Notes under the pieces: generated by a model
Told to the model about the DNA's origin: nothing
The model's database searches: none
The model's input: only the letters and a program-made list of their open reading frames with translations
Translations under genes and position numbers: made by a program
Shown here: piece after piece, positions 52 to 33,021 of the stretch
Layout: each line of letters starts with the position of its first letter
How positions within the stretch are numbered: position 1 is the first letter of the stretch
Assembly: GCA_035602395.1 (NCBI GenBank)
Contig: DATNMH010000068.1
Coordinates: 920-64,919, forward strand
DNA from: Candidatus Acidiferrum sp.
GTDB taxonomy: Bacteria; Chloroflexota; Dormibacteria; CF-121
Direction: 5' to 3'
Length of the DNA stretch: 64,000 nt

Positions 52-83
52 CCTCCGCCTCTGGGGGAGGGCGCGGTGGGGGC
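52..83 (+). repeat. Copy a (degenerate) of the C-tract/G-tract hairpin repeat element
   Basis: cctccgcctctgggggagggcgcggtgggggc matches the consensus CCCTCCCCCTCTGGGGGAGGGCAGGGTGGGGGC seen six more times in the window. It is intergenic, upstream of the first CDS. Confidence 0.6.
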
Positions 84-130
84 GGCTGGGTGCAAGAGGG
101 GTCGCTTGCACGGAGTTGCTCCTGTGCGGC

Positions 131-1648
131 ATGGCTGACCTGACTTCGCCCGGTGCAACCAAGCACGTGGTGGTCATGGGCGCCGGGCCAGCCGGGCTGT
201 CGGCCGCCTACGAGCTGACGCGCCACGGGACGCCGGTGACGGTGGTCGAGAAGGATCCTCGCCAGGTCGGAGGGATCGCCCGCACGCTCGAGTTCATGGG
301 CTGTCGGTTCGACGTGGGCCCCCATCGGTTTTTCTCCAAGAGTGCCGAGATCGAAGCCCTATGGACCGAGGTGCTGGGCGACGAGATCCGGTCGGTCTCG
401 CGGCTGACGCGGATCATGTACCGGGGGAAGTTCTTCGACTATCCGATCAAGGCCTCGAACGCCTTCCTCAACCTGGGGCCATACGAGACGGCGCGCTGCC
501 TGGTGAGCTATGCGCAGGCGCGCCTGCATCCGGTGGTCGACCCGAAGTCGTTCGAAGACTGGGTGTCGAATCAGTTCGGGCATCGCCTGTTCGAGATTTT
601 TTTCAAGACCTATACCGAAAAGGTGTGGGGAATTCCGACCACCGAGCTTTCAGCCGACTGGGCGGGGCAGCGGATTCGCGGGCTCAACCTGGTGGAAGTG
701 ATCCGGAATGCGCTCCTGCCCGCGGCGTGGCGCGGCGGCGAGGGCGCGATCGTCAAAACCCTGGTCGACGCATTCCGATATCCGAGAACGGGTGCCGGGC
801 AAATGTGGGAGGCGGTGGCGTCGCGGCTGGCAGCGGCAGGCCATCCGGTGCGGTTAGGGGAGGAGGTGGTCGCGGTCCGCCATGCGAATGGCCGCGTCAT
901 CTCCGTGCAGGTGAAGGACCGCAACGGTGCCACGCTGGACGTGTTGGGATCGGAGTTCATCAGCACCATGCCGATCCGCGAGTTGATCGCCAAGCTCCAA
1001 CCGGCCGCGCCCTCGATCGTGCGCGCGGCTGCCGACGCGCTCGGGTATCGCGATTTCATTACGGTCAATGTCGTGGTCGACCGCGCCAACGTCTTCCCGG
1101 ATCAATGGATCTATGTGCACGACCCGGGCGTGAAGGTGGGGCGCATCGGGAACTTCAAGAATTTCAGCCCGGCGATGGTCGACGATAGTGGCTTGACCGG
1201 CCTGGGGATGGAGTACTTCTGCTTCGAGCACGATGGCATGTGGAGCTCGCCGGATGCCGACCTCCTGGATCTGGGGCGGCGTGAGCTGGTGGCGCTGGGG
1301 ATCGTTCGGCCTGAGGAGGTCAAGGCGGGGATGGTCTACCGCCAGCCGAAGGCCTATCCCGTGTACGACGGGGCGTACCTCGGACACCTGGAGGTCGTGC
1401 GCGAATGGTTGCGCCGCGCGCTGCCGAACCTGTGGCTGGTGGGGCGCAATGGGATGCACCACTACAACAACCAGGACCACTCGATGATGACGGGGATCCT
1501 GGTGGCGCGGAATATCGCGCTGGGCGCCAACTACGATCCCTGGCTGGTCAATACCGACGCCGAATATCACGAAGAGGAACGCGCGGGGGAAGCGGCCGGC
1601 GGCGAGGGCGGGGCCGGGCGTCAGGTGCCGCAGCGAATCGCCAGCTGA
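131..1648 (+). CDS. FAD/NAD(P)-binding oxidoreductase (amine-oxidase / UDP-galactopyranose-mutase-like fold)
   Basis: ORF track 116..1648. Dinucleotide-binding motif VVVMGAGPAGLSAAYEL, plus FDVGPHRFF and FFKTYTEKVWG motifs. ATG at 131 is preferred over TTG at 116, but the start is uncertain. Confidence 0.8.
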   Translation: MADLTSPGATKHVVVMGAGPAGLSAAYELTRHGTPVTVVEKDPRQVGGIARTLEFMGCRFDVGPHRFFSKSAEIEALWTEVLGDEIRSVSRLTRIMYRGKFFDYPIKASNAFLNLGPYETARCLVSYAQARLHPVVDPKSFEDWVSNQFGHRLFEIFFKTYTEKVWGIPTTELSADWAGQRIRGLNLVEVIRNALLPAAWRGGEGAIVKTLVDAFRYPRTGAGQMWEAVASRLAAAGHPVRLGEEVVAVRHANGRVISVQVKDRNGATLDVLGSEFISTMPIRELIAKLQPAAPSIVRAAADALGYRDFITVNVVVDRANVFPDQWIYVHDPGVKVGRIGNFKNFSPAMVDDSGLTGLGMEYFCFEHDGMWSSPDADLLDLGRRELVALGIVRPEEVKAGMVYRQPKAYPVYDGAYLGHLEVVREWLRRALPNLWLVGRNGMHHYNNQDHSMMTGILVARNIALGANYDPWLVNTDAEYHEEERAGEAAGGEGGAGRQVPQRIAS

Positions 1649-1686
1649 CCCGGAAGTCGACCGATATACTGGTTCGCGCCTGGCAG

Positions 1687-1761
1687 TCCGGAGTAGCTCA
1701 ACGGTAGAGCAGCACGCTGTTAACGTGACGGTTCCCGGTTCGAATCCGGGCTCCGGAGCCA
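1687..1761 (+). tRNA. tRNA-Asn (anticodon GTT)
   Basis: Hand-folded cloverleaf. Acceptor tccggag/ctccgga, D arm gctc-aacggta-gagc, anticodon loop ct-GTT-aa, T arm cccgg-ttcgaat-ccggg, discriminator g and encoded CCA. One G.A mismatch at the top of the anticodon stem. Confidence 0.9.
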
Positions 1762-1768
1762 ACCCTCT

Positions 1769-3610
1769 CTAGCTCGGGCCCAGCCTCCAGAGATACACCC
1801 CGCCATCCTGCGTCGGGGGCGTCCCGATGATGGCCGTCAGAAACGCCAGCACTCGATCCTCGCCCGCCATCGGGCCGAGCACCACGGTCTGCACCTGCCA
1901 GCGTCGTAACATCGCCATCGCCGACGTGCGGTACGCCGCCGTCACTTCCGGCGCCGGCGCGCCCTGCTGCATCGCCATCAGGTCGGAGCCCAGCATCGTC
2001 GGCGCTGGATCCAGCGCCGGGCCGGGTCGATTAGCGTAGCCCTCCGGCATCTTGAAGCGCAAGTCCGCGCTGAGCTGCCACAGCATCGCGCGCGACTCGA
2101 ATTGGTGCGCATAGGGGACGACCAGCGCGATGCTTCCGGACGGCAGCGTCGAGACCGAGCCGCTGGAGAAGAAGGTGGGCACGTTGGCCGCCGAGGTGGC
2201 AAAGGGAATCCGCGGCACCAGGGTCATCAGCGCCAGGGCCGCGATCGCACCCGCCGCCATCGTCCGCCGTGGCGATGCGAAGTCCCAGCGATCGACCAGC
2301 ACCGACAGCAGCAGGCCGGCAAAGAGGAAGACATAGAGCATCAGGCGGCTGGGCACGACGTTGTGCAGGAGCGGCACCGTCGCCAGTCCCGCCCAGATCA
2401 ATCCGAAGAGCACCGGCGTCAATCGACCAACCCGGGTGCGGACCACCGCGAGAAACGCCACGGCGAGCAGCCCGGCCGGTAGGCCGGTCGTCACGCCGCC
2501 GAGGTGGAACGTGATCCCTAGCGAAAGGGCGGCGGCGAGCAGCGCTAGCATCGACGCCACCTGAACCACCGGAGCCCGCCACCAGCGCACCACCGCGAGG
2601 ACCAGCAGGACCAGCATTGGCAATCCCAGGAATGCCCCGGCCTCATACTGGCTGCCGCTGAATCGGTCCGTGACCGCGGTGAGTGCGGCTGGTGCGATGG
2701 CCTGCAGCGAGGTCGGCAGCACCAGGCCGGCCACGTCCGTGACAAAAACATTCGACGCCGCGAGCGTGCCGTGGACCGCCTGCGGGCCGAAGAACTGCAT
2801 CCACAGCGGCCCGACGGCGACCAGTGTGAGCATGCCGGTGGCAACCCCGAGGACCTTGAGGACGTAGGTCGCCCGCACCCGGACCTGGTCGGGACGCAAG
2901 CCAGCCAGAATTGCGAGCGCCATGCACGCCAGCAGGACTTGTGTCAGCAGCAACTCCTCGGAGATCAGGAGTTGGGCCGCGGCCATCGCGCCGATGATGG
3001 CTCCCAGGCGCCAGGGCGATCGCTGCTGCCGCAGGACGGCTTCTTCGAAGGCGATCAGCATCAGCGGGCAGATGAACACGACCCCAACGTGCGGATGCCC
3101 GAGCGATTGGGCCAGCATGTAGGGCGAGAACCCAAAGAGCAGCCCGCCAAGGGCGGCTGCCCAGGGACGCTCCACATGACGGCGGAACGCGAGGAAGGCG
3201 CACCACGCGGCAAGCGCCATCGAGGCCGTCATCAGCAGGTTGTAGGCGAAGATCGGCCCCAGCGTCAGCGTAATGGGGGCCAATAGCAGGCCGAGCAATG
3301 GCACCGACGTCTGCCACATCAGGTTGACCCCGCTGGGAAAATCGAGATAGTTGGTGAACAGGGGGTTGAGGCCGTGGCTGAGTGCAAAGGGCACCCAGCG
3401 CAGGTACCAGATGAATACCGGCGGGTCGGGTCCGTCGCCGATGACCTGCGAGAAGGGATGCGCCCAGGTGGCGGCAAACAATCCGAGCGCGAGCAGCCCA
3501 TAGGTCGCAAGCCATCCGGCAGGCGTGCTGAGAAGGCTCAACCAGGCATCCGAGTGCGCCGGTTCGGACGCGCGCGGGTCGGGGCGAAGACGGGGCGCTG
3601 GAAGGCTCAT
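1769..3610 (-). CDS. Polytopic integral membrane protein, GT-C-fold glycosyltransferase-like (function uncertain)
   Basis: 613-aa ORF with more than 10 hydrophobic segments followed by a soluble C-terminal domain. The architecture resembles ArnT/PMT/YfhO-type lipid-linked sugar transferases. No catalytic motif was verified. Confidence 0.7.
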   Translation of the reverse strand: MSLPAPRLRPDPRASEPAHSDAWLSLLSTPAGWLATYGLLALGLFAATWAHPFSQVIGDGPDPPVFIWYLRWVPFALSHGLNPLFTNYLDFPSGVNLMWQTSVPLLGLLLAPITLTLGPIFAYNLLMTASMALAAWCAFLAFRRHVERPWAAALGGLLFGFSPYMLAQSLGHPHVGVVFICPLMLIAFEEAVLRQQRSPWRLGAIIGAMAAAQLLISEELLLTQVLLACMALAILAGLRPDQVRVRATYVLKVLGVATGMLTLVAVGPLWMQFFGPQAVHGTLAASNVFVTDVAGLVLPTSLQAIAPAALTAVTDRFSGSQYEAGAFLGLPMLVLLVLAVVRWWRAPVVQVASMLALLAAALSLGITFHLGGVTTGLPAGLLAVAFLAVVRTRVGRLTPVLFGLIWAGLATVPLLHNVVPSRLMLYVFLFAGLLLSVLVDRWDFASPRRTMAAGAIAALALMTLVPRIPFATSAANVPTFFSSGSVSTLPSGSIALVVPYAHQFESRAMLWQLSADLRFKMPEGYANRPGPALDPAPTMLGSDLMAMQQGAPAPEVTAAYRTSAMAMLRRWQVQTVVLGPMAGEDRVLAFLTAIIGTPPTQDGGVYLWRLGPS

Positions 3611-3715
3611 AGTTTGCCGGTTTAGGCGTTGGGGAAGGACTTGATTAGGTCGGACGTTTTTCTGCTATAACGCGGGAGTCCGGCCGAACCGCCGGATCCA
3701 ATATTGGAGGTTTAG

Positions 3716-5736: not shown

Positions 5737-6059
5737 GCGAGCAGAACGATCCGATCACTGACGGACGCGCGCCCGATCCGGCGTCGAGTGGGGGAGACGG
5801 CACCGGCTGGTCGCAGCCGCCGGCACCGCAATCCCCGGGTCCGCCCGGCGCCTTCGTCGACCGTCCCGCTGCGCCACCAGGAGCTCCGCTGCCACCGGGT
5901 GCCGGCTCGCCACTGCAACCGGGACCGCCGATGTCGGTGAACGCACCGATCACCGACTCGATCATCAACCGCTACGCCCTGGTGGTGGGCGTGGTCGTTG
6001 TCGTTCTGGTCCTGATCGTGGTCCTGGTGATCCTGGCCGCGGTCTTCGGCAAACGATGA
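5733..6059 (+). CDS. Proline-rich protein with C-terminal transmembrane anchor
   Basis: ATG 5733 overlaps the upstream stop (ATGA). Pro-rich N-terminal half, then YALVVGVVVVVLVLIVVLVILAAVFG. Confidence 0.6.
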   Translation: MSEQNDPITDGRAPDPASSGGDGTGWSQPPAPQSPGPPGAFVDRPAAPPGAPLPPGAGSPLQPGPPMSVNAPITDSIINRYALVVGVVVVVLVLIVVLVILAAVFGKR

Positions 6060-6067
6060 GATAAGCG

Positions 6068-6096
6068 TCTGCATATACACAGATATGTAGTATAAT
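6068..6096 (+). promoter_or_regulatory. Candidate promoter for radC; perfect -10 TATAAT 6 nt before the GTG start (leaderless geometry)
   Basis: TATAAT at 6091-6096 in an AT-rich patch. Weak -35 TCTGCA at 6068-6073 with a 17-nt spacer. No SD before GTG 6103. Confidence 0.35.
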
Positions 6097-6102
6097 CAGC
6101 CC

Positions 6103-6893: not shown

Positions 6894-6915
6894 CAAGCCC
6901 GAAAAGGGCTTGAAA

Positions 6916-7021: not shown

Positions 7022-7131
7022 CCTTCGAATTTCGAAGCCCGCGACAAGGGCTTCGAAATTCTCGAAGCAAGGGCTTCGAAATTCTCGAAGCAAGGGCTTC
7101 GAAATTCTCGAAGCAAGAGCTTCGAAATTCT
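7020..7131. repeat. Tandem direct repeat, 23-bp unit gggcttcgaaattctcgaagcaa, 3 full copies plus 1 partial and 1 diverged leading copy
   Basis: Full units at 7048-7070, 7071-7093 and 7094-7116. Partial unit at 7117-7131. Diverged unit gccttcgaatttcgaagcccgcgacaa at 7021-7047. Each unit carries the near-palindrome gcttcgaAATTCtcgaagc. GC is about 48%, well below the window background. Confidence 0.9.
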
Positions 7132-7889: not shown

Positions 7890-7925
7890 CCCTCCCCCGC
7901 TTGCGGGGGAGGGCAGGGTGGGGGC
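7890..7925 (+). repeat. Copy b of the hairpin/G-tract repeat element
   Basis: ccctcccccgcttgcgggggagggcagggtgggggc, between two minus-strand genes. Confidence 0.8.
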
Positions 7926-7927
7926 CG

Positions 7928-9067
7928 TCAGCTCGTCCGGAAGATCTCAGTGATCTGCCCGGTGCCGTAGTCCCCGACCAGCAGGCCGCCGTCGGGCGCG
8001 ACGGTGATCGCCAGTGGATGTGAGAACCCGGTGGCGAAGTCGCTGACCTGGCCGTGCTCGCTCGCTCCCGAACCTGAGAGCACGACGCGCAACACGCGGC
8101 GCCCGATCGGACCGCCGGCGTTCGCGCCCCACTCGGTGACGAACGCGTTGTCGGCGTAGTCGCCGCCAAACTCGCCGCCACCGTAGATGACGATGCCGTC
8201 CGCCGAGCTGTGAGGTGTGAACACCGCCACCGGCGCGGCGACGCCGCCGCAGTTGCCGTGCAGGCTGCCATCCGGATAGGCCGGCCAGCAACGCGGCCAA
8301 CCGGCGTCTTCACCGTCGACCACCCGCAACATGTGATCGGCAGGCTGCGTCCCGAGGTTGTCCTGGCCGTTGATCATGACGTAGGCATCGCCAGTGCTCG
8401 CCCGTAGCGCGAGTCCGAATGGATTTCGGGCTCCGCGCACCGCAATTCCGGCAAAGGTCCAGTCGGAGTGAAAGCGCAGGACCGTGGCGCTGCGCGAGTC
8501 GGCCTCGGTGCAGACGTCGCAGGTCGAGCCCACACCCAGCAGGATGTCGCCGTTCGGCATGGGGAGGACGGCGTCATTCTGATGACGGCCAGTCGGGAGA
8601 CCGGCGACCACGACGTGGGCGCCGCTGAGGCCGCCGTTGCTGAGCTGGTAAGTGCGAACGCTGCCCTGGACCGAAACAATCAGCTCATTGCCGCGCCAGG
8701 CGAGCCCCAGCGCGATCGGCAGGCCCGAAACCAGGGTCTGCGGCGCTGAGCCCGGCGACGCCACCACCTCGATCGCGCCGCCCTGGGTCGCCACGTACAG
8801 CCGGCCGTCCGGTCCAAATGCCATCGCGCTGGTGGTGCCCGCTCCTCGCGCATAGGTGTATGCGGAAAAGCCTGCCGCGACGCTGATGCCGCCGGCGGCG
8901 GGGAGGTTGGGCGGTGGCGGGAGGGGCGTAGGTGTCGGCGGCGGGGTTGGGGTGGGCGTCGCGGTCGGCGTGTGGCGCGGGGATGCCGTCACCCCCGTTT
9001 GGGACGTTGGCTGGCCGCACGCAACCAGCGTCAGCGCCATCAAGGTGGTCAGCGCTCGCCGTCTCAC
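7928..9067 (-). CDS. Lipoprotein, PQQ-dependent sugar (glucose/sorbosone) dehydrogenase-like beta-propeller
   Basis: Lipobox LTLVAC and a Pro/Thr linker. Motifs GPDGRLYVA, GARNPFGL and VAPDGGLLVGDYGTGQI are typical of the GSDH family. Confidence 0.7.
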   Translation of the reverse strand: MRRRALTTLMALTLVACGQPTSQTGVTASPRHTPTATPTPTPPPTPTPLPPPPNLPAAGGISVAAGFSAYTYARGAGTTSAMAFGPDGRLYVATQGGAIEVVASPGSAPQTLVSGLPIALGLAWRGNELIVSVQGSVRTYQLSNGGLSGAHVVVAGLPTGRHQNDAVLPMPNGDILLGVGSTCDVCTEADSRSATVLRFHSDWTFAGIAVRGARNPFGLALRASTGDAYVMINGQDNLGTQPADHMLRVVDGEDAGWPRCWPAYPDGSLHGNCGGVAAPVAVFTPHSSADGIVIYGGGEFGGDYADNAFVTEWGANAGGPIGRRVLRVVLSGSGASEHGQVSDFATGFSHPLAITVAPDGGLLVGDYGTGQITEIFRTS

Positions 9068-23831: not shown

Positions 23832-24589
23832 CTTCCACCATCCTTCTGCTAGGTGACTCTGTTTCCCAGAGTCTGTCGCCAGGATTTCAGCATGCCGCCT
23901 TCATGGCCTTAGGGATCGACTGCCGATACGTGGCGCGCGAGGTACCGCCGGCACAACTCGCCGCTATGATCGACGAAATCCGCGCCGACATGCGGATCCT
24001 CGGAGCAAACGTCACCATCCCGCATAAGGAAACGGTCATTCCGTTGCTCGACGAACTCGATCCACTGGCCCGCAAGGTCGGCGCGGTCAATACGATCAGC
24101 CGGGATAGTCTGCGGCTGAAGGGCTGGAACACCGACGTCGTGGGATTCCAGCGCGCACTCGCAGAAAAATCGATATCACCCCGTCGCGTCGCGATTATCG
24201 GAGCGGGCGGAGCCGCGCGCGCGGTCGCCGCCGCCCTCCAACCCACGGCCGATCAGGTCTGGGTCGTCGCGCGGAACCTTGATCGGGCGCGACGGCTTTG
24301 CCGAGATCTCGATATCGTGCGCGGCGGCGCTGTCGACGTAAACCAAATGCAGGATACCGTCGCAGCCGCAGACCTTGTCGTAAATGCCACGCCGTCCGAC
24401 CTTCCGCCCGCGGGTTGGCTGCGACCCGACCAACAACTCTTCGACTTGCGCAGTCGGCCGTCGGTTGATGGTCGGGCCATGCTCCTCTACCAGGGCGCGG
24501 CATCTTTCGAGATATGGACAGGCCGGCCGGCGCCGCTTGTCGTGATGCGCCACACGCTCGAGCGCTCCGCAGCGTCGGTGTCGGCATGA
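23828..24589 (+). CDS. aroE: Shikimate dehydrogenase
   Basis: GANVTIPHKE, NTDVVGF, IIGAGGAARAVAAAL. ATGA overlap. Confidence 0.9.
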   Translation: MTSTILLLGDSVSQSLSPGFQHAAFMALGIDCRYVAREVPPAQLAAMIDEIRADMRILGANVTIPHKETVIPLLDELDPLARKVGAVNTISRDSLRLKGWNTDVVGFQRALAEKSISPRRVAIIGAGGAARAVAAALQPTADQVWVVARNLDRARRLCRDLDIVRGGAVDVNQMQDTVAAADLVVNATPSDLPPAGWLRPDQQLFDLRSRPSVDGRAMLLYQGAASFEIWTGRPAPLVVMRHTLERSAASVSA

Positions 24590-25731
24590 CCCTCCGGTTA
24601 CTTACGGCGGGCGAATCCCACGGCGAGCGGCTCACCGTGATCCTCGACGGTGTTCCCGCCGGGTTGACGGTGCGCGAGGAAGACCTCGCCCGCGACCTGA
24701 CCCGGCGGCAGGGTGGGCACGGCCGAGGCGGACGAATGGCCATCGAGCACGATGCCGCCCACATCGTGGCCGGCGTGCGCGGCGGCTTGACGCTGGGCTC
24801 GCCGATCACGCTCGAGATCGCCAACCGCGACTGGGAGAACTGGCGGCAGGTCATGGCGGTCGACGCCGCGGAGGTCAAGCGCAAACCGATCACGCGGGTG
24901 CGCCCGGGGCACGCGGATCTGGCCGGCATGCTCAAGTACGGCGCCGACGATGCCCGCGACGTGCTCGAGCGCGCCAGCGCCCGGGAGACCGCGGCGCGCG
25001 TGGCGGCGGGCGGGGTGGCGAAGCTGCTGCTCCGCGAGTTCGGCATGCAGGTCCGCAGCTATACGCGCTCCGTCGGGGCCATCGAGGCCACCGTACCCTC
25101 GACGATTTCATGGGACGCGGTTGAGGCATCGCCCGTCCGTTCTCCCCATGATGCGGCGGGGGAGGCCATGGTTGCGGCCATCGACGCCGCGCGCGAACGC
25201 GGCGACACCCTTGGTGGCGTCTTCACCGTGATCGCCGACGGTGTGCCGCCTGGCCTCGGCAGCTACCGCCAGTGGGACACCCGCCTCGACGGGTTGCTCG
25301 CCCAGGCGATCGTGAGCATTCCGGCCTGCAAGGCGGTTGCGATCGGCGATGGCGTGGAGGGCGCGGGCCTAGCTGGCTCGCAGGTCCATGACGTTCCCGT
25401 CTACGACAACCGCCGGCTCAGGCACGAAACCAATCGCGCTGGCGGACTGACCGGCGGCGTCAGCAACGGCGAGCCGCTGGTCGTGCACGGCTACATGAAG
25501 CCGATCTCGACGTTGCTCAAGCCCCTCGCCACCGTCGACCTCAAGACCAAGGAACCGGCCCGCGCCCATTACGAGCGCAGCGACATCTGTGTCGTGCCTG
25601 CGGCTGGCGTGGTCGGCGAGGCCATGGTGGCGCTCGTCCTCGCCGGAGTCGTGCTCGAAAAGTTCGGCGGCGACTCGATGGGGGAGCTTCATCGCAACGT
25701 CGAGAGCTACCTGCAGGAGATCCGCCGTTGA
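24586..25731 (+). CDS. aroC: Chorismate synthase
   Basis: LLTAGESHGE, RPGHADL, GGLTGGVSNGEP. ATGA overlap with aroE. Confidence 0.9.
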   Translation: MTLRLLTAGESHGERLTVILDGVPAGLTVREEDLARDLTRRQGGHGRGGRMAIEHDAAHIVAGVRGGLTLGSPITLEIANRDWENWRQVMAVDAAEVKRKPITRVRPGHADLAGMLKYGADDARDVLERASARETAARVAAGGVAKLLLREFGMQVRSYTRSVGAIEATVPSTISWDAVEASPVRSPHDAAGEAMVAAIDAARERGDTLGGVFTVIADGVPPGLGSYRQWDTRLDGLLAQAIVSIPACKAVAIGDGVEGAGLAGSQVHDVPVYDNRRLRHETNRAGGLTGGVSNGEPLVVHGYMKPISTLLKPLATVDLKTKEPARAHYERSDICVVPAAGVVGEAMVALVLAGVVLEKFGGDSMGELHRNVESYLQEIRR

Positions 25732-27350
25732 ACACCGTAGTCCTGGTCGGCTTCATGGGGAGCGGGAAGTCGACCGTCGGTCCGCGCCTCGCGCAGCGGA
25801 TGGACCGGCCCTTCGTCGACCTCGACGATGTGATCGAGGCCGAGGCCGGGCGATCGGTCGCCGAGATCTTTTCGAGCGAAGGCGAGGCCGGCTTCCGCGA
25901 GCGCGAAGCGCGCTGCCTCGAGCGCGCACTCCAACGCGGCGGCTCGGTTGTTGCCGTCGGGGGCGGCGCGCCGATGCGCGACGAGAACTGGGTGCGCATC
26001 CGGGATGGGAACTGTGTCGTGGCGCTGATCGCCGAGCCCCATGAGCTCGCCCGCCGGCTGAATGGATCAACCGACCGCCCACTGCTGCAGCCGGGCGCGC
26101 CGTCCGTGATCGCTGAGCTGCTGCCGCGCCGCTTGCCCCGCTACCTCGAGGCGGATGTGGTGATCAAGACCGATGGGTTCGATCCGGCCGAGGTCGCGCA
26201 GCAAATCCACGATCGGCTTGCGGGCAGTGGCCTGCACCGGATTCCGATCGACGTCCCCGGCGCCCCACACGACGTCACCGTGGGTGCGCATCTGACCGGC
26301 GTGGTCGCCGCGACGCTGCGGCGGCATTTTCCCTCCCCCTCTGGGGGAGAGCAGGGTGGGGGCTCTCCCACCATCGTCGTCGTGACCGATGACGTGATCG
26401 CCGAACGACACGGCCGACCTCTGCTCCACGAACTGGCATCGGCTGGCATCGATGCACAGATGCACCTGCTGCCGTCAGGGGAGCCTGCTAAGGAGCTAGC
26501 CGTGCTCGCGGGCATCTACGACGCGCTTGCTGCCGCCGGCGTCGATCGGCGCGGCGCGCTGATTGCGTTGGGCGGGGGCAGCGTGGGCGATGTCGCCGGC
26601 TTCGCCGCCGCGACCTGGATGCGGGGCATCAGGTATTTCCAGATGCCGACGACGCTGCTGGCCATGGTCGACAGCAGCATCGGCGGAAAGACGGCGATCA
26701 ACCTGCCCGCCGGCAAGAACCTGGCGGGCGCGGTTCATCAGCCCTCGGCGATCTTCTGCGATCTCGATTACCTGGCAACCCTGCCGGACGAGGAGTTTCG
26801 CGTCGCGTTGGCCGAGGTGATCAAGGCCGCCCTCATTGCCGAGCGCTCTTTTGCCGAGTGGCTCTCCGCCAATATGCCAATGGTGCTGAGCCGCGACGCG
26901 TCCTCGGTCCGCGAGGCGGTGACGCGCGCCATCGCCATCAAGGCGGCTGTTGTGGCGAGCGATCCGAACGAGACGGGTGTGCGGGCCATTCTCAATTACG
27001 GGCACACCGTAGGCCATGCATTGGAACGCGTCGTCGGGTTCGGCGGGATACGACACGGCCAGGCGGTGGCGTGGGGCATGGAGGTGGCGGCACGGATCAG
27101 CCTCCTTGTCGGTGCCTGTACGGCGGAAAGCATTGAGACACAACACGCCCTGCTTCAGGATGCCGGCCTGCTCGGCGATCGCCCCGTCGTTCCTCATGCG
27201 ATGCTGATCGATGCGATGCGGCATGACAAGAAATCCCAATCGGGCGACGCGCGCTGGGTGCTCCTCCGCGAGATCGGCCGGGCGGACTACGGCCAGCGGG
27301 TCGATCCGTCGATCGTTCGCGCCGCGCTCGCCGAGGTCCTTCCCGAATGA
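25728..27350 (+). CDS. aroKB: Fused shikimate kinase / 3-dehydroquinate synthase
   Basis: N-terminal P-loop GFMGSGKSTVG (AroK). C-terminal GGGSVGDVAGFAAATWMRGIRYFQMPTTLLAMVDSSIGGKTAIN and NYGHTVGHALE (AroB). TTGA overlap with aroC. Confidence 0.9.
   Translation: MNTVVLVGFMGSGKSTVGPRLAQRMDRPFVDLDDVIEAEAGRSVAEIFSSEGEAGFREREARCLERALQRGGSVVAVGGGAPMRDENWVRIRDGNCVVALIAEPHELARRLNGSTDRPLLQPGAPSVIAELLPRRLPRYLEADVVIKTDGFDPAEVAQQIHDRLAGSGLHRIPIDVPGAPHDVTVGAHLTGVVAATLRRHFPSPSGGEQGGGSPTIVVVTDDVIAERHGRPLLHELASAGIDAQMHLLPSGEPAKELAVLAGIYDALAAAGVDRRGALIALGGGSVGDVAGFAAATWMRGIRYFQMPTTLLAMVDSSIGGKTAINLPAGKNLAGAVHQPSAIFCDLDYLATLPDEEFRVALAEVIKAALIAERSFAEWLSANMPMVLSRDASSVREAVTRAIAIKAAVVASDPNETGVRAILNYGHTVGHALERVVGFGGIRHGQAVAWGMEVAARISLLVGACTAESIETQHALLQDAGLLGDRPVVPHAMLIDAMRHDKKSQSGDARWVLLREIGRADYGQRVDPSIVRAALAEVLPE
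26331..26363 (+). repeat. Copy c of the hairpin/G-tract element, in-frame inside aroK::aroB
   Basis: ccctccccctctgggggagagcagggtgggggc, translated as PSPSGGEQGGG within ...RRHFPSPSGGEQGGGSPTIVVV... Confidence 0.8.
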
Positions 27351-27805
27351 AGATCCTGGTGCTCAACGGCCCCAACCTCGGCACGCTTGGTCGCCGGGAG
27401 CCCGAGGTGTACGGGACGAAAACGCTCGCCGATCTCGAGATCGTGCTCACCACCCGCGCCAAAGAGCTCGGCGTGGAGCTTCGCTTCCTGCAGTCGAATC
27501 ACGAGGGTCAGCTGATCGACTGGATCGAAACCGAGCCAGGCGACGCCATCATCATCAATCCCGGCGCACTCTCGCACTACAGTCTGGCCCTTGCCGATGC
27601 CATGCGCGGCTCCGGCAAGCCGGTCGTCGAAGTCCACATCTCCAATGTCTTTAGCCGCGAGCCGGAGCGGCACCGGATGGTCACCGCCGCGGCGGCGAAA
27701 GGCGTCATCTCCGGCCTCGGCTTCGAGGGATACCTCGCAGCTCTCGATTACCTGCGATCGCTCCCTCCCCCGCGGGCGGGGGAGGGTCGGGGTGGGGGCG
27801 GCTGA
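27347..27805 (+). CDS. aroQ: Type II 3-dehydroquinate dehydratase
   Basis: ILVLNGPNLGTLGRREPEVYG, QSNHEGQLIDWI, IINPGALSHYS, VEVHISN. The last ~14 codons and the stop come from repeat copy d. Confidence 0.9.
   Translation: MKILVLNGPNLGTLGRREPEVYGTKTLADLEIVLTTRAKELGVELRFLQSNHEGQLIDWIETEPGDAIIINPGALSHYSLALADAMRGSGKPVVEVHISNVFSREPERHRMVTAAAAKGVISGLGFEGYLAALDYLRSLPPPRAGEGRGGGG
27763..27799 (+). repeat. Copy d of the hairpin/G-tract element, forming the 3' end of aroQ
   Basis: ccctcccccgcgggcgggggagggtcggggtgggggc, translated LPPPRAGEGRGGGG then TGA. Confidence 0.8.
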
Positions 27806-27936
27806 GCGTCCAACTCGAGGCGCTGGCTGACGAGGTCTTCGGCGCGGCGGCAGCCCAGGGTCGAACCGGGGGAGAGAGTGTTCGCCGGCCTTTCGGCGAA
27901 ATCGTCAGGAATACGACGTATCCGGACCTCTTCTTT

Positions 27937-28602
27937 TTGACCGGCATCGAGGACCTGGTAGCGCCGACGTGGCAGGCGGCCGATTTGCAGCGGGTGGTGC
28001 AGGAGGCGATTCCCGGTGCCATCACGTACCGCGCGAGCAGCCGCGACCCCGCCACGATCGCGGTGCTGAATCCGCTCCTGGTCGCCGCGGGGTACTCGAG
28101 CGAGACTCGTGTCGCGATGGTCCAGGTCTCGGTTCCTCCGGCATCCTCCCCCTCTGGGGGAGGGCGGTGTGGGGGATTCACCATCCTTCCTGTTCGAACC
28201 GACGAGGGATGGGCGGCCTTCGAGCAGCTGATCTATGCCGACACGCAGGAACACGGGTGGACCGACGCGATGAGGGCGCAGTTGGTCGCGCTCTATCGCT
28301 GGCGTGCGGCCGACACGCCGCATCATTACTATCTCGCCCATGACGGGACGCAGACGGTCGGGCACGTCGGCCTCTTCCAGCACGGCACGAACGCCTACCT
28401 CCATGGGCTCTACACGCACCCGTCGGCGCGCCGCCGCGGAGCGGGCGCCGCGTTGACTCTCGCCATGAGCGTAGAGGCCCGCGCGCTCGGCTGTCAGCGG
28501 CTGACGCTGCAGTGCACCCGCGACTCGTCGCTGCCGGCCTATTACGAGCGCCTGGGATTTCGAGCCGTCGGTGAGAAACAAATTTGGACAAGGCCCGCGT
28601 AA
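27937..28602 (+). CDS. GNAT-family N-acetyltransferase
   Basis: HVGLFQHG...LHGLYTHPSARRRGAGAALTLAM...YYERLGF (acetyl-CoA binding R-x-x-G-x-G/A). TTG start. Contains repeat copy e. Confidence 0.8.
   Translation: MTGIEDLVAPTWQAADLQRVVQEAIPGAITYRASSRDPATIAVLNPLLVAAGYSSETRVAMVQVSVPPASSPSGGGRCGGFTILPVRTDEGWAAFEQLIYADTQEHGWTDAMRAQLVALYRWRAADTPHHYYLAHDGTQTVGHVGLFQHGTNAYLHGLYTHPSARRRGAGAALTLAMSVEARALGCQRLTLQCTRDSSLPAYYERLGFRAVGEKQIWTRPA
28145..28175 (+). repeat. Copy e of the hairpin/G-tract element, in-frame inside the GNAT gene
   Basis: cctccccctctgggggagggcggtgtggggg, translated SSPSGGGRCGG. Confidence 0.75.
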
Positions 28603-28604
28603 TT

Positions 28605-28637
28605 CCCTCCCCCTCTGGGGGAGGGCAGGGTGGGGGC
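28605..28637 (+). repeat. Copy f of the hairpin/G-tract element at the GNAT stop / glycosylase start junction
   Basis: ccctccccctctgggggagggcagggtgggggc, a perfect consensus copy. Confidence 0.85.
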
Positions 28638-29591
28638 GTGACCGCGGGGTGGCGGGCCGAGTTTCCGCTGGTCGGCCCGGAGGGCGAGGTCGTCGACCTG
28701 CGCCGCGTTTTCCTCTCGCACGGGATCGCGGAGCTGCCGCCGATGCGACTCGACCAGAAAGCCTGGACCTTTGAAATCACCGTTCCGCTGACCGGATTCA
28801 GCCCGCGGACGGTCGTGATTTCCCAGGCGCTTCCTGGCCACGGAGTGATCGAGATCATGGGTCGGCCGCCAACGCCGAAACTCGGCGTCGCCGTCATGGC
28901 GCAGGTTCGTCATGTCCTGAGCCTTGACCTTGACCTCATGCCCTTCTATGCCGTGGCGGCCGAGGATCCGGATCTGGCCTGGGTCCTCAGCGGAGCGGGG
29001 CGGATGGTGCGCAGCCCCACGGTCTTCGAGGACGTCGTCAAGACCATCTGCACGACGAACACCTCATGGGGCGGAACCACACGGATGGTCAACGCCCTGG
29101 TCGAACACCTGGGCGAGAAGGCGCCCGGAGCGCCGCCGACCGGACCGTATGGGCGTGCCTTTCCCACCCCGCAAGCGATGGCGGCGGCGCCGGAGCGCTT
29201 CTATAAGAAGGTTGCGAGCGCCGGCTACCGGGGCCCTTACCTCAAGTCGCTGGCCAACGACGTCGCGTCCGGACGCGTCGAGCTCGAGAGCCTCGCCCAA
29301 CGCTCGCGAGAGGTGTTGCCCGACGATGAGGTGGCAGCACAGCTGCAGGCGCTGCCCGGCGTCGGCCCCTACGCGGCGGCGCACATCATGTTGATGCTGG
29401 GCCGATACGACCGTCTCATTCTCGATTCCTGGACCAGGCCGACCTACGCTCGCCTCCTCGGGAAGAAGCGGCCTGTCAGCGATCGCACCATCGAGCGCCG
29501 CTTCAAGTCTTATGGGCGTTACGCCGGTCTCGCCTTCTGGCTCTTTCTAACTCGAGATTGGCTGACCGACGACGCCCAGCCTATTCTTTGA
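28638..29591 (+). CDS. HhH-GPD superfamily DNA glycosylase (AlkA / 3-methyladenine glycosylase II-like)
   Basis: LQALPGVGPYAAAHIMLMLGRYDRLILDSW (helix-hairpin-helix plus Asp). GTG 28638 is preferred. The ORF track start TTG 28584 would read through repeat copy f. Confidence 0.8.
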   Translation: MTAGWRAEFPLVGPEGEVVDLRRVFLSHGIAELPPMRLDQKAWTFEITVPLTGFSPRTVVISQALPGHGVIEIMGRPPTPKLGVAVMAQVRHVLSLDLDLMPFYAVAAEDPDLAWVLSGAGRMVRSPTVFEDVVKTICTTNTSWGGTTRMVNALVEHLGEKAPGAPPTGPYGRAFPTPQAMAAAPERFYKKVASAGYRGPYLKSLANDVASGRVELESLAQRSREVLPDDEVAAQLQALPGVGPYAAAHIMLMLGRYDRLILDSWTRPTYARLLGKKRPVSDRTIERRFKSYGRYAGLAFWLFLTRDWLTDDAQPIL

Positions 29592-29598
29592 CAAAACC

Positions 29599-30243
29599 AT
29601 GAGCACGCCGGAGTTGCGGGTGCTGATCGTCTCGACCAACCCGCTCGCGCGCGGCGGACTCGCCGCCATGCTCGAGGGGATGCCGCGGGTGAAGGCGATA
29701 GGCTCGGCCGGCACGGCCGAGGCGGCGTCGCTCGCCGGGCAACTGCTGCCGGACGTCGTGCTCCTCGACGTCGGCGACGGCGAGCTCGAAGACCTCGATG
29801 CGATTGCGCGCCTGGCCGCCGCCCAGCCCGGTTTGCCGATCGTGGCGCTCGCCGGCGAGCCGGGCGCACTGACTCAGGCGCTTGCCTTCGGTGCCTCGGC
29901 CTTGTTGCCAGTCGGCGTCGATCCGGACACCCTGGCCGCGGCCCTGTTCGCCTCCGCCCGGGGGCTGGTGTCGATCCCGCGTCAGGAGATTGCCACCCTG
30001 CTGCCCCACGACGAGCGAATCGAAGCGGCTGCGAACGCGCCGACGGAGTTGCTGACTCCACGCGAGCTCGAGGTGCTCCAGTTGATGGCGCGCGGCTTCA
30101 CCAACCGGCAGATCGCCGGGCGTCTCCAGATCAGCGAGCACACGGTGAAATTCCACGCCGGTGCGGTGCTCGGCAAGCTGAACGCGCACTCGCGCGCCGA
30201 GGCTGTCGCCCGGTCGATCGGACTCGGCTGGATCCTCGTCTAG
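29599..30243 (+). CDS. NarL/LuxR-family response regulator with atypical receiver
   Basis: C-terminal LTPRELEVLQLMARGFTNRQIAGRLQISEHTVKFH. The receiver has VLLLDVGDG, but the N-terminal acidic pair is replaced (IVSTNP). Confidence 0.85.
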   Translation: MSTPELRVLIVSTNPLARGGLAAMLEGMPRVKAIGSAGTAEAASLAGQLLPDVVLLDVGDGELEDLDAIARLAAAQPGLPIVALAGEPGALTQALAFGASALLPVGVDPDTLAAALFASARGLVSIPRQEIATLLPHDERIEAAANAPTELLTPRELEVLQLMARGFTNRQIAGRLQISEHTVKFHAGAVLGKLNAHSRAEAVARSIGLGWILV

Positions 30244-30271
30244 CGATGACGCTCTAGACTAGGCAAGCGAT

Positions 30272-30712
30272 ATGGCAGTGGACGCCGAAGGGTATGGCGC
30301 GAAAGAAGAAGGGCTCGACCGCCTGATCGCGGACGCGCGAGTGCTCTCACCGGCCGGAATCGAGCGGGCCGCCTGGGGCTGGGATCGGCATGAAGATCCG
30401 CGGATCATGGAGCGCTTCCACGAGGCCGAACGCGCGGCGCTCCGCGCCCTCGAGAAGAGCGATCGCGGACCGCAGTGGGACGACGCGCGCAAGCGCATCC
30501 TCGACCTCACCGAGCGTCGGACGTCGCTCGAAGACTGGAAAGCCGAGCATGGTGACGTTGGTCACAAAGCTGAGCGCGCCCTGCTCGCGGCGGCGCTCGC
30601 CATCGTCGCGCGAGACAAGATCGATCATCCGCATTACGTCACGCTGGTGCGGCCAATGTCCGAAGCGCTTCCCTGGCTGTTGCCCGAATTGCCGCCCGAA
30701 CCACGCCGATGA
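30272..30712 (+). CDS. Hypothetical protein, translationally coupled to the rhodanese gene
   Basis: 146-aa ORF with coding-like composition. ATGA overlap with 30709. No recognisable motif. Confidence 0.6.
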   Translation: MAVDAEGYGAKEEGLDRLIADARVLSPAGIERAAWGWDRHEDPRIMERFHEAERAALRALEKSDRGPQWDDARKRILDLTERRTSLEDWKAEHGDVGHKAERALLAAALAIVARDKIDHPHYVTLVRPMSEALPWLLPELPPEPRR

Positions 30713-31149
30713 TGATCGCGCCGCGGGTCGATCCGGCCGCCGCGAAGGCCAAGTTCGACGCAGGCGAGGCCATCCCGCTCGATGTGACCAGCTCGCTGGT
30801 GTATCCGGCCGTAAGCCACCGGATCCCAGGCGCAATTCGGATCCCGCCAGAACCGATCACCCGCGGTCTGCAGGGAGCCCGGCCGGCGGCGGAGATCCTG
30901 AGACACTTCGAGAGCCTGCCTGCCGATCGCGAGATCATCGCCTATTGCACCTGACCCGACGAGGGTACCAGCGCCCGTGTGGCGCAATTTCTCCGACAGC
31001 AAGGGCGGCAGGCGTGGGCATTACGCGGCGGTTTGGCAGCCTGGCGCGCGGCCCAATATCCGATGGAGTCGAAGCACGCCGATCATGCGCCGGGCCCGGA
31101 GGAAGAGTGCCCCGACTGTCATGAGGAAGTCGCGGCACACCTCGCCTGA
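30709..31149 (+). CDS. Single-domain rhodanese (sulfurtransferase) with in-frame TGA at the catalytic-Cys position: candidate selenoprotein, otherwise a pseudogene
   Basis: Frame is open 30709-30951 (...HRIPGAIRIP...REIIAYCT), then TGA at 30952-30954. The same frame continues for 64 codons (PDEGTSARVAQFLRQQGRQAWALRGGLAAWRAAQYP...) to TGA 31147-31149. Confidence 0.6.
30971..30985 (+). promoter_or_regulatory. SECIS-like hairpin candidate downstream of the in-frame TGA
   Basis: gcgcc-cgtgt-ggcgc, a 5-bp GC stem with a 5-nt loop and G at loop position 2. The stem starts 16 nt after the UGA. Such a short stem could occur by chance in GC-rich DNA. Confidence 0.25.
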
Positions 31150-31152
31150 GCG

Positions 31153-31926
31153 TTAGTCGTTGAGCTCGTAGACGACCGCCACGTCGACCGTGACGTTCAT
31201 CTGGCCGGCCTGCACGGGCGCCCCGCCGCCCCCGCCGCCGCATTGGCCGCCGGCGCCGCATGGCGAGTAGCCTGAGCTGCCGCCGATGACCTCTGAAACC
31301 GAGAGCACCTTGCCGAGGTGACGCCCGGCGAGGTTCGCCCATTCCTTGGCACGATCCGCCGCCGCATTCATCGCCCCTTGTCGCGCACCCTTCAGCTGGT
31401 TGGTGTTATCGCTCAATTGCAGCGTGATGCCGTTGATCTGGATGTCGTTGCCCACGGCTCCCTGGGCCGCCCCCAGGACGGTGCCAATATTGGCGATGTG
31501 ATGGATCTTGACGTTGACCGTATTTCCCGCCCGATAACCGATCACGTTGTACTGGTTTTCTTGATAGACGTTGATGCCGGTCGTCTGGATGTCGGCGTCC
31601 AGGACTCCTTGGCCCTTGATCGCCTTCAGCAGTGCGGTCATCTCGCTGTTGGCGGCGTTCATCGCATCTGCCGCCGTGCTCTGCCTGGTCAACACGCCCA
31701 TGCTGATCAAGGCGTTGTCCGGCGTCGCATTCTGGGTTCCTTCGCCGACAACGGTGACCGTGTCCCGTGGTCCGGCAACACCGCCGGCTCCGACCGAGGT
31801 CTGCGTCGATCCCGCCGCGCCGGCCCGGACGGCCACCGCCGTTACCGCCGATGCCGCGATCGCGATCAAGGCGCCGATGATGATCAGAATTCCACGCGTG
31901 GCGAGCGTACCCCTCAAGGCTTGCAT
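31153..31926 (-). CDS. SIMPL-domain (DUF541) secreted/periplasmic protein
   Basis: N-terminal TM/signal segment and a SIMPL-like core (GVLTRQSTAADAMNAANSEMTALLKAIK ... NDIQINGITLQL). Confidence 0.75.
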   Translation of the reverse strand: MQALRGTLATRGILIIIGALIAIAASAVTAVAVRAGAAGSTQTSVGAGGVAGPRDTVTVVGEGTQNATPDNALISMGVLTRQSTAADAMNAANSEMTALLKAIKGQGVLDADIQTTGINVYQENQYNVIGYRAGNTVNVKIHHIANIGTVLGAAQGAVGNDIQINGITLQLSDNTNQLKGARQGAMNAAADRAKEWANLAGRHLGKVLSVSEVIGGSSGYSPCGAGGQCGGGGGGAPVQAGQMNVTVDVAVVYELND

Positions 31927-32078
31927 GACGTCGTACTCCTTCAGATGATCTCGGATTGGATGAATCTGAGGTAAGAACGCGGCCTCGCAGCAAACCGTTA
32001 CACCTGCTCTAATGGGCGGCTCGCGTCCCGGACCTCCGGGTGATCGCGCCGATCGATCAGTGCGCTAGCGTGGAGGGC

Positions 32079-32963
32079 ATGGGAACGCTGTCCGACCTTT
32101 CGCGGGATATCGCTGAGCTCGTCGGGCGCCTCGGCCCTAGCGTCGTGCGGGTCGATGCCCGCCACGGACGCCCGGCCACCGGGATTATCTGGGCGGACAA
32201 CCTGGTGGTCACCGCGGAGCACGTGATCGAGGAGGACGGCAACATTCTGGTGACCGGTCCTCCCACCACGGTAAAAGCCACGGTGCTCGGCCGTGATCGT
32301 GCAACCGACATTGCGGTGTTACGAACCGAAGGGCTCCGAGCGGCACCCGCGCCCCGCGGACGCTCGGAGGACGTCCGTACAGGCCATATTGTGCTTGCGC
32401 TCGGCAACGCCAGCGAGCACCAGGTCACGATTGGGATCGTCAGCGGCTTTTCGGGCGAGTTTCGGAGCTGGCGTGGCGGCCAGCGCCTTTTACTGATCCA
32501 GTCGACGGCCCAACTGTTGCCCGGGTTCTCCGGCGGCCCACTCGTGGACACGGAGGGCCGTGTGATCGGGATCAACAGCTGGAACTATGGGCGCGGCGTC
32601 AGCCTCGCGCTACCGGTGGGGATCGCGGAACGGGTGGCTGAGAGCCTGCGCACCCACAGTCGGATCCGTACCGCCTATCTCGGCGTCGGCGTCCAGCCGA
32701 TCCGCCTGACCGACACACTGGGACTTGGACAGGAGAGCGGGCTGCTGGTCGTCACCGTCGAGCCGGATGGGCCAGCCCATAAGGCCGGAATCCTCCAGGG
32801 GGACACCCTCGTCACGGTGAACGGCGATCCGCTCCTTGGACGCTTGGACGCGCTCTTCGCCGTTTTACGTGCGCTCGACGCCGACTCAACCCATACGTTC
32901 GGCGTGGTCAGGGCGGGTGAGGTAAAGGAGGTCCGGGCAACCCTCGGCGAAGTCCCTGGCTGA
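32079..32963 (+). CDS. Trypsin-like serine protease with C-terminal PDZ domain (HtrA/S1C family)
   Basis: Triad context VTAEHV, DIAVL, GFSGGPL. PDZ region GLLVVTVEPDGPAHKAGILQGDTLVTVNG. ATG 32079 is preferred over 32040. Confidence 0.85.
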   Translation: MGTLSDLSRDIAELVGRLGPSVVRVDARHGRPATGIIWADNLVVTAEHVIEEDGNILVTGPPTTVKATVLGRDRATDIAVLRTEGLRAAPAPRGRSEDVRTGHIVLALGNASEHQVTIGIVSGFSGEFRSWRGGQRLLLIQSTAQLLPGFSGGPLVDTEGRVIGINSWNYGRGVSLALPVGIAERVAESLRTHSRIRTAYLGVGVQPIRLTDTLGLGQESGLLVVTVEPDGPAHKAGILQGDTLVTVNGDPLLGRLDALFAVLRALDADSTHTFGVVRAGEVKEVRATLGEVPG

Positions 32964-32987
32964 ATCTCTCCCTTGCATAGCACGTGT

Positions 32988-33021
32988 CCCCTCCCCCTCT
33001 GGGGGAGGGTAGGGTGGGGTC
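32988..33021 (+). repeat. Copy g of the hairpin/G-tract element (intergenic)
   Basis: cccctccccctctgggggagggtagggtggggtc, between the htrA-like stop and the ABC exporter start. Confidence 0.8.

Follow-up and report, generated by a model that had tools for sequence, protein, structure and literature searches.

A soil-metagenome stretch of 64,000 nucleotides from Candidatus Acidiferrum sp. (contig DATNMH010000068.1 of assembly GCA_035602395.1, positions 920 to 64,919 of the forward strand; hereafter the window) carries seven copies of a short repeat that, judged by its sequence, is a class II G/C-rich intrastrand triplex motif. Elements of this kind are known; the sequence variant and the host lineage are new. 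The repeat consists of three blocks on one strand: a pyrimidine arm (CCCTCCCCC), a purine arm (GGGGGAGGG) separated from it by a 3-6 nt loop, and, after a spacer of 2-3 nt, a tail (GGGTGGGGG) that is complementary to nothing in the element but mirrors the purine arm, i.e. reads as that arm backwards with T opposite A. We consider it probable (roughly 0.72) that this is a dispersed, indel-prone repeat defined by a strand-folding triplex motif, most likely selfish or neutral.

Anatomy, excess and mirror covariation of the repeat

A preliminary description of this DNA had reported seven co-oriented copies of a hairpin element. Reading the seven intervals directly revealed the element in each, with its orientation set by the asymmetric G-rich tail:

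52..83, + strand: copy 1, degenerate; CCTCCGCC-TCT-GGGGGAGGG-CGC-GGTGGGGG; 48 nt 5' of the ATG (131) of an amine-oxidase-like gene
7890..7925, + strand: copy 2; CCCTCCCCC-GCTTGC-GGGGGAGGG-CA-GGGTGGGGG-C, DNA hairpin of -13.5 kcal/mol; between two minus-strand genes, 2 nt past the stop (7928-7930) of the open reading frame (ORF) 7928-9067
26331..26363, + strand: copy 3; purine arm with one G>A change, GGGGGAGAG; in frame in the AroB N-terminal loop of the AroK-AroB fusion ORF 25728-27350 (residues 200-214, HFPSPSGGEQGGGSP)
27763..27799, + strand: copy 4; CCCTCCCCC-GCGGGC-GGGGGAGGG-TCG-GGGTGGGGG-C; translated as the AroQ C-terminal tail LPPPRAGEGRGGGG (ORF 27347-27805)
28145..28175, + strand: copy 5; CCTCCCCC-TCT-GGGGGAGGG-CG-GTGTGGGGG; in-frame linker (residues 115-125) of ORF ~27802-28602, which has an N-terminal region without Pfam match and a C-terminal GNAT domain
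28605..28637, + strand: copy 6, canonical; pyrimidine arm CCCTCCCCC 28605-28613, loop TCT 28614-28616, purine arm GGGGGAGGG 28617-28625, spacer CA 28626-28627, putative reverse-Hoogsteen arm GGGTGGGGG 28628-28636; between the TAA of the GNAT gene (28600-28602) and the GTG start (28638) of an HhH-GPD-like gene
32988..33021, + strand: copy 7; CCCCTCCCCC-TCT-GGGGGAGGG-TA-GGGTGGGG-TC; intergenic, 24 nt past the stop of a trypsin/PDZ protease gene (32040-32963) and 44 nt before an ABC transporter gene at 33066

By chance, ~0.02 copies would be expected in the window, whose G+C content is 64-68 %. The tail pattern GGGGGAGGGCAGGGTGGGGGC (≤3 mismatches) returned six sites, all on the plus strand, as compared to 0.02 expected from shuffled sequences, and the hairpin pattern CCTCCCCC-N2-8-GGGGGAG likewise returned six, against an expectation of 0.01. 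A profile hidden Markov model built from the seven copies and run over both strands gave hits to these copies alone at E < 1e-4; the same seven and nothing further were flagged by a rule-based finder of triplex motifs. Four of them cluster near the 3' end of the aro operon (within 26331-28637), in agreement with the earlier account. The mixture of intergenic and intragenic placements also stands, except for copy 3, which is not situated between genes: it falls within the AroB portion of an ORF that natively fuses AroK and AroB. As to the hairpin loops, GCTTGC and GCGGGC are present—each adding closing G-C pairs to yield a 10-bp stem with a 4-nt loop—whereas the commonest loop is TCT between 9-bp arms, and not 'tctg'. 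The region upstream of copy 5 in its ORF has a coding-like G+C content at third codon positions (GC3).

According to the motif finder and fold prediction, all seven copies possess stems of 8-11 bp and loops of 3-6 nt. The published ITxF criteria specify stems of 6-15 nt and first and second loops of 1-6 nt each, and permit a single stem mismatch such as that in copies 1 and 3 (PMC4666352). In every copy the third block follows the rule for an antiparallel third strand (G·G:C, A·A:T, T·A:T) with at most one mismatch. Folding the copies as single-stranded DNA with ViennaRNA gave hairpins of -9 to -13.6 kcal/mol for copies 1, 2 and 4-7; the fold of copy 3, with its mismatched purine arm, was less clear. 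The program predicts the hairpin only and leaves the tail essentially unpaired in the minimum-energy or centroid fold. What had been described as a conserved G-rich tail corresponds to the third strand of a class II purine-motif triplex motif. Triplex formation itself would follow by analogy, namely from circular dichroism (CD) and nuclear magnetic resonance (NMR) measurements on the E. coli motif and from archaeal oligonucleotide data. The common unit of 33 nt equals 11 codons, and the element is free of stop codons in all six frames. The window consensus (G5-A-G3-CA-G3-T-G5) also contains four runs of at least three G, spaced 1-7 nt apart.

To compare arm and tail across many stems, we drew on a scan of one-genome-per-species contigs with the pattern CCTCCCCC-N3-6-GGGGGAGGG-NN-GGGTGGGG, which returned at least 120 DNA stretches. 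These loci from other genomes also contain pyrimidine/purine hairpins with other stem sequences, and in the variant tails G faces the arm G, while T or A faces the arm A:

purine arm G4AG4: tail G4TG4
purine arm G3AG5: tail G5TG3 or G5AG3
purine arm GGGGAGAGGG: tail GGGTGAGGGG
purine arm G5AAG3: tail G3TTG5
purine arm GGGGAGAGA: tail AGAGTGGGGG or AGAGAGGGG

This covariation is exactly that expected of a purine-motif triple helix with an antiparallel third strand (triplets G·G:C, T·A:T and A·A:T). With the stem used for the database scan excluded from the statistics (five shifted-register rows of that stem remained, which are not independent), 20 of the 33 asymmetric-arm hairpins carried a tail mirroring the arm at nine of nine positions, as opposed to three when tails were scored as direct repeats (Wilcoxon p = 4.7e-4). 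With cognate arms the score averaged 8.30, compared to 7.26 ± 0.08 in 2000 arm permutations (maximum 7.57). While 195 of 224 distinct motifs satisfied the rule for G-quadruplexes (G4), the other 29 obeyed the triplex rule yet lacked the four G-tracts that a G4 requires; G4 potential is hence common without being the conserved property. In numerous independent stem variants the tail tracks the purine arm, which speaks for triplex potential, and not sequence or G4 potential, as the property under selection.

Filled and empty sites in close relatives

Site occupancy was compared between the window, contigs of sample ERR1700693 and related assemblies (99.7-100 % identical), and 80 metagenome loci fetched via AroQ, ~30 of them at 76-94 % protein identity. 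Within 32 related loci we found 33 motifs, all on the aro-operon strand; in the AroQ-fetched set, loci at ≤60 % identity contained none. The preliminary description had proposed looking for empty sites in related genomes, and filled and empty alleles were indeed found, often differing by exactly 33 nt. At the copy 1 site, for instance, two independent assemblies (L208 and L209) that are otherwise 99.7-99.95 % identical to the window have 'TT' in place of the window's 33 nt (ACGTGTT...GCGG).

Within the aro operon, copy 3 occupies a variable AroB loop preceding the conserved ...VVVTD strand, and is present in seven relatives (L122, L124, L130, L132, L135, L142 and L153) and absent in 11 (L126, L127, L129, L133, L134, L136, L141, L143, L146, L149 and L150). 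The AroB loop of L132 contains two motif-derived peptides in series. At the site of copy 4, the window and nine relatives encode an AroQ of 152-153 aa with the tail ...SLPPPRAGEGRGGGG, the DNA motif being decayed in several of them, whereas the AroQ of L127 and L129 comprises 141 aa: exactly 33 nt (11 codons) less, with the TGA and the downstream DNA unchanged. L143 is empty at the same site. In more distant relatives the motif lies 2-19 nt past the aroQ stop, or is missing. The surrounding stop/start junction (window 27800-27805) varies as well. In the copy-4-free loci L127, L129 and L143, a GTG overlapping the aroQ TGA (GTGA) starts the downstream ORF; nearly all alleles with copy 4, the window included, read CTGA, so that the canonical start of the downstream GNAT-domain ORF is lost, and L140 has kept GTGA despite copy 4.

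In aroE, relatives harbor in-frame motifs, once tandem-duplicated, in the interdomain linker of shikimate dehydrogenase. Inspection of this interdomain site revealed a full in-frame motif in L126, L129, L134, L136 and L141, a tandem pair in L135 and L132, and 'FPSP' alone, the translated 5' flank plus pyrimidine arm, in L124 and L127. The corresponding aroE residues 114-118 of the window (24167-24181, KSISP) may represent the scar of a triplex motif. Upstream of aroE, at its boundary, L132 further carries two identical motifs in direct tandem, 9 nt apart (1408-1486).

Downstream of aroQ, length differences at the copy 5 site among 11 relatives are all multiples of three (+21, +3, -3, -9, -21), and in L127, L130 and L153 the purine arm and tail alone remain. 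Copy 6 is filled in the window, L123 and L129; eight relatives (L122, L124-L128, L130 and L153) are cleanly empty there, with gap 0 and a length reduced by exactly 33 nt. In these empty alleles the GNAT TGA overlaps the GTG of the next gene (GTGA), or an ATG (ATGA) in L122 and L124; in L129, the GNAT ORF runs through copy 6 to the old GTGA stop/start overlap. The copy 7 site differs and is element-free in L125, L126 and L128, and is filled in L127. Copies 4 and 6 flank a 0.8-kb GNAT segment in the window, and relatives in which aroQ directly precedes the HhH-GPD-like gene lack this segment and have zero or one motif at the junction. No target-site duplication was evident at copies 1, 4 and 6, where variable 5' leaders are combined with a sharp 3' boundary.

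Could the intragenic copies instead be native, low-complexity Pro/Ser/Gly-rich coding sequence whose resemblance to the repeat is coincidental? Copies 3, 4 and 5 do lie in uninterrupted ORFs with coding-like GC3. However, the segment is missing from the corresponding position of orthologues at 76-91 % identity, in many cases with a length difference of exactly 33 nt, the element is translated in different frames depending on the site (PSPSGGGQGGG, LPPPRAGEGRGG, SPSPLMEESRG), and the chance expectation given above is far below the number of copies. We regard this explanation as almost certainly wrong. Conservation of the intragenic copies as protein sequence in distant orthologues had been named in advance as the outcome that would speak for native coding DNA; the filled and empty patterns decide the matter in favor of insertion, orthologues lacking the copies in AroB, AroQ and the GNAT gene. 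The turnover of sites agrees with the published link of triplex motifs to local instability.

Relation to described triplex motifs, distribution and polarity

The preliminary description could not match the repeat to any named family, yet the class has already been described under the names BoxC, PIT and TM (PMC4666352), and related archaeal repeats have been reported (PMC8044849). Holder et al. 2015 distinguished four classes of intrastrand triplex motifs, with class II defined by a pyrimidine block, a purine block and a 3' reverse-Hoogsteen block (PMC4666352). Their TM-ECO family (consensus 5'-CCCTCNCCC N3-6 GGGNGAGGG N3 GGGNGAGGG) comprises 3610 copies in 262 proteobacterial genomes; it had earlier been named BoxC, and PIT elements by Hoyne, Maher and colleagues, whose studies (Hoyne et al. 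2000, Hoyne & Maher 2002) are cited in that paper (PMC4666352). As a single strand, TM-ECO forms a very stable triplex by CD and NMR (melting temperature 70-82 C), and 18 imino-proton NMR signals were recorded for the E. coli motif (PMC4666352). In E. coli K-12 its copies are always intergenic, show no strand bias, occur at times as inverted pairs, and are tied to raised local sequence variability (PMC4666352). An earlier PIT study is cited there as finding neither promoter nor terminator activity, and earlier work as finding that purine-motif triplexes cannot form in RNA (PMC4666352).

The window element shares with TM-ECO the block order, 9-nt stems, a first loop of 3-6 nt and a G/C-rich composition, as well as numerous interspersed copies that vary among close relatives, a competing G4 potential, and the lack of a promoter or terminator and, over the window and the 10 kb on either side, of an associated transposase. 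It differs in sequence (C3TC5/G5AG3/G3TG5, as opposed to CCCTCNCCC/GGGNGAGGG/GGGNGAGGG), in a second loop of 2-3 nt instead of a fixed 3 nt, and in its host, a soil metagenome lineage that is probably not proteobacterial. Unlike TM-ECO, which is reported as always intergenic and strand-unbiased, it also has in-genic, in-frame copies and a near-uniform orientation. The TM-ECO pattern had no match in the window; its presence in 11 other fetched loci indicates that the search works, and the window element would thus be another sequence member of the class, and not TM-ECO. A 2021 paper described G-rich repeats with a C-track in Methanomicrobiaceae, which exist in an equilibrium of hairpin, triplex and G4 (PMC8044849). 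These repeats are likewise interspersed and able to take up a GC hairpin, an antiparallel G-rich third strand or a G4, but their C-track lies 3' of the G-runs (class I order) and they are reported to be intergenic only. A literature search by arm sequence returned just unrelated eukaryotic papers.

Behaviorally, the repeat resembles Rickettsia palindromic elements (RPE), as the preliminary description had suggested, in being tolerated in frame inside ORFs; the likeness does not extend beyond behavior. RPE measure about 100-150 bp and can insert in frame into genes, to be translated as a surface loop. They are not known outside Rickettsia, nor are they known to feature a purine/pyrimidine asymmetry of the arms or a mirrored tail.

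Beyond the window, the at least 120 stretches returned by the database scan place the family far above chance expectation. By record title, the hosts among the matches listed span more than a dozen phylum-level groups: Alpha-, Beta- and Gammaproteobacteria, 'delta' groups, Chloroflexota, Dormibacterota, Nitrospirota, Planctomycetota, Bacteroidota, Spirochaetes, Elusimicrobia, Verrucomicrobia, Myxococcota, Thermodesulfobacteriota, Zixibacteria and Eisenbacteria. Most matching records are metagenome-assembled genomes (MAGs), for which single taxon assignments may be wrong, but cultured isolates are among the matches listed (Sphingomonas, Bradyrhizobium, Variovorax, Brevundimonas and Luteimonas), indicating that the phylum breadth is real. 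Loop and spacer sequences fall into lineage-specific subfamilies, and the type present in the window (TCY loop and CA spacer, with a T-rich 5' flank) is seen again in MAGs bearing the labels Chloroflexota and Dormibacterota (L013, L083, L103, L115 and L121). This shared subfamily is the sole pointer to the placement of the lineage: exact matches to its proteins came from soil metagenome contigs alone, and tblastx against the 120 named loci yielded no close homologue. The core was further found in 48 viral or proviral stretches from IMG/VR (L210-L257), mostly with a GCTTGC/GCAAGC loop and an AA spacer as in Xanthobacteraceae genomes; one viral contig (L229) holds three copies in the same orientation. 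For TM-ECO, no association with phages or plasmids was reported (Holder et al., PMC4666352).

Copies in other phyla, mostly Alphaproteobacteria among the matches listed, usually form two-sided palindromes or inverted pairs with 0-150 bp between the partners, and neighboring pairs in the loci listed are in opposite orientation in 95 cases vs 36 in the same orientation. These stretches (within L005-L120; e.g. L026 2498-2647, L011, L024 and L035) typically consist of a motif, a 30-120 bp spacer and an inverted motif, an arrangement in which the G-tail and the C-tail of the two partners can base-pair to give a composite of ~110-190 bp resembling a miniature inverted-repeat transposable element. 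The window lineage, by contrast, has single copies. L118 exhibits an apparent nesting (~280-360): the pyrimidine arm of a GGGGAGAGGG-type motif is separated from its loop by a motif of the GGGGGAGGG type, which gives the impression that one variant was inserted into the other.

In the window, the uniform plus orientation reported earlier holds for all seven copies, but it is not absolute: the 10 kb on either side (read from contigs 99.9 % identical) add one plus and one minus copy, giving eight plus vs one minus over 84 kb. Roughly 10 of 11 distinct sites in the lineage are co-oriented with local transcription, copy 2 being the sole window copy that opposes it, and the window's genes are almost evenly divided between the strands. 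Whole-window GC skew is +0.011, and the skew at third codon positions follows the coding strand (-0.080, +0.089) and cancels, with no net replication component; transcription- and replication-linked biases are therefore not separable here. Across the 120 loci listed, masked GC skew was unrelated to motif orientation (mean -0.004, p = 0.29). Given the inverted pairs in other phyla, polarity is not a family-wide property.

Elsewhere in the window, a tandem array of approximately four copies of a 23-nt unit (caagggcttcgaaattctcgaag), each with a short inverted repeat, is located at 7047-7130, downstream of a minus-strand Tim44-like gene. In L207, a contig 99.9 % identical to the window, an N-gap falls exactly at this position, so the copy number of the array may vary or assemblers may break there. 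A eukaryotic-type topoisomerase IB is encoded at 57861-58940 (Pfam Topoisom_I / Top1B_N_bact, from the annotation of the identical contig L204).

Competing explanations and implications

Repetitive extragenic palindromes (REP; including BIME and REPIN-RAYT systems) are short GC-rich extragenic palindromes, and the preliminary description had likened the repeat to them. A REP/BIME-type repeat mobilized by a RAYT (IS200/IS605-like HUH) transposase would account for a short, GC-rich, palindromic interspersed element mostly found at gene ends, for inverted pairs in other phyla that resemble REP doublets (REPINs), and for the strand bias of the window lineage. Yet the conserved GTAG head is absent, the 5' flanks reading aTTT, ACGTGT or GATCGCT, and neither a RAYT nor any other Y1/HUH transposase was found in the window or the 10 kb either side. 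More broadly, Pfam scans of ~50 ORFs together with the Pfam annotation of the flanks revealed no transposase, RAYT or integrase in ~84 kb. REP families are moreover species-specific, whereas the present core spans the phylum-level groups named above by record title, and a tail that mirrors the purine arm by Hoogsteen-type and not Watson-Crick complementarity would be left unexplained. We therefore did not retain the REP/BIME assignment, which appears very unlikely. An element acting in RNA, with the GC hairpin protecting mRNA 3' ends past stop codons or marking processing sites in a REP-like manner, would fit the five copies 2-24 nt past a stop codon, the relatives' copies shortly past the aroQ stop, and the co-orientation with transcription. 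It is opposed by copy 2, which is antisense to its genes, by the strand symmetry of the hairpin alone, for which a mirrored tail is unnecessary, by the absence of any Rfam family at gathering score, and by the PIT study in E. coli, cited in PMC4666352 as seeing no terminator activity; we rate this possibility as quite unlikely. Intrinsic termination itself was rejected: no copy was called terminator-like in 25500-33500, the tails being G-rich and no T-run following the hairpin. Nor was there any promoter signal at the copies.

Scanning the window against Rfam at gathering thresholds yielded a tRNA (1687-1758) alone, and a permissive scan returned sub-threshold hairpin look-alikes alone, the best being Whalefall-1 (16.5 bits vs a cut-off of 37). 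Positions 28603-28637 are such a sub-threshold match to RF01762 (the Whalefall-1 'RNA motif'), whose consensus, UCUCUCC-loop-GGAGAGA ... AGGGUGAGG, resembles a pyrimidine arm, a purine arm and a G-rich tail. In light of this likeness, the Whalefall-1 motif, itself metagenomic, may belong to the same class as a triplex repeat of DNA.

A G4 in DNA or mRNA could be the active form, with a hairpin/G4 switch acting on transcription, translation coupling or replication. The consensus is a canonical four-tract motif, the rule being met in 195/224 motifs, archaeal relatives turn to G4 after annealing in K+ (PMC8044849), and most copies in the lineage lie on the coding strand. But a G4 needs neither the C-rich arm nor the mirror-symmetric A/T, both of which are conserved and covary; 13 % of the motifs cannot form a three-tetrad G4; and for the C-arm-containing E. 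coli motif the number of imino-proton signals pointed to a triplex, not a G4 (PMC4666352). We consider a G4 as active form unlikely. A strand-polar architectural sequence, comparable to the FtsK-orienting polar sequences (KOPS, GGGNAGGG) and orienting FtsK or marking replication direction, finds some resonance in the purine arm and spacer, which contain GGGGAGGG and GGGCAGGG, and in the excess of plus copies over 84 kb. Each hairpin, however, also contains the inverse octamer, the copies of other phyla are mostly inverted pairs or two-sided, and with no replication component in the third-codon skew a polarity relative to replication is not demonstrable. The presence of both octamer orientations per hairpin and the inverted pairs elsewhere led us to reject KOPS/FtsK polarity as highly improbable.

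A strand-folding triplex motif, in turn, could operate as follows. Whenever its strand becomes transiently single-stranded, be it during replication, in a transcription bubble or during repair, the first two arms would pair as a Watson-Crick hairpin of 9-11 bp, and the tail would bend back across the 2-3 nt spacer to lie in the major groove, running antiparallel to the purine arm and giving eight G·G:C triplets plus a single reverse-Hoogsteen T·A:T triplet. Between close relatives the element is gained, lost, truncated or duplicated, and it survives where harmless: past stop codons, at stop/start overlaps, and in in-frame protein loops, linkers and termini. It would then most likely be a selfish or neutral structural repeat that destabilizes its surroundings locally, as opposed to a regulatory signal. 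We infer both the action at the DNA level and the lack of a host function. Several observations weigh against this explanation. In-vivo dimethyl sulfate (DMS) footprinting in E. coli gave no sign of the triplex (PMC4666352), a G4 is an alternative fold for 87 % of the motifs, and neither a copying mechanism nor a target-site signature was found in our comparisons. A purely neutral repeat would, in addition, show no orientation bias; the co-orientation of ~10 of 11 sites may therefore point to a strand-specific process or function. Conceivably, though only tentatively, the repeat is active, structure-defined mobile DNA of many bacterial phyla, i.e. folded single-stranded DNA recognized by some machinery, copied in 33-nt units, inserted strand-polar at stop/start junctions and even in frame in the essential genes aroB, aroE and aroQ, and carried from lineage to lineage by phages. 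This idea draws on the occurrence of the core in more than 12 phylum-level groups by record title and in 48 viral stretches, and on alleles that differ between 99.9 % identical strains.

Taking the selfish or neutral triplex-motif repeat as the favored explanation, the present analysis places an unnamed repeat in a described class of intrastrand triplex motifs. Triplex motifs are not restricted to intergenic DNA, as essential enzymes can also carry them in frame, be it in a loop, a linker or a terminus. The in-frame aro copies, the clean 33-nt site turnover between close relatives, apparently also between strains, and the co-orientation extend existing knowledge modestly. Combined with single and nearly all co-oriented copies, as opposed to the inverted pairs seen elsewhere, this turnover makes the window lineage a natural system in which to study the copying and in-vivo folding of triplex motifs.

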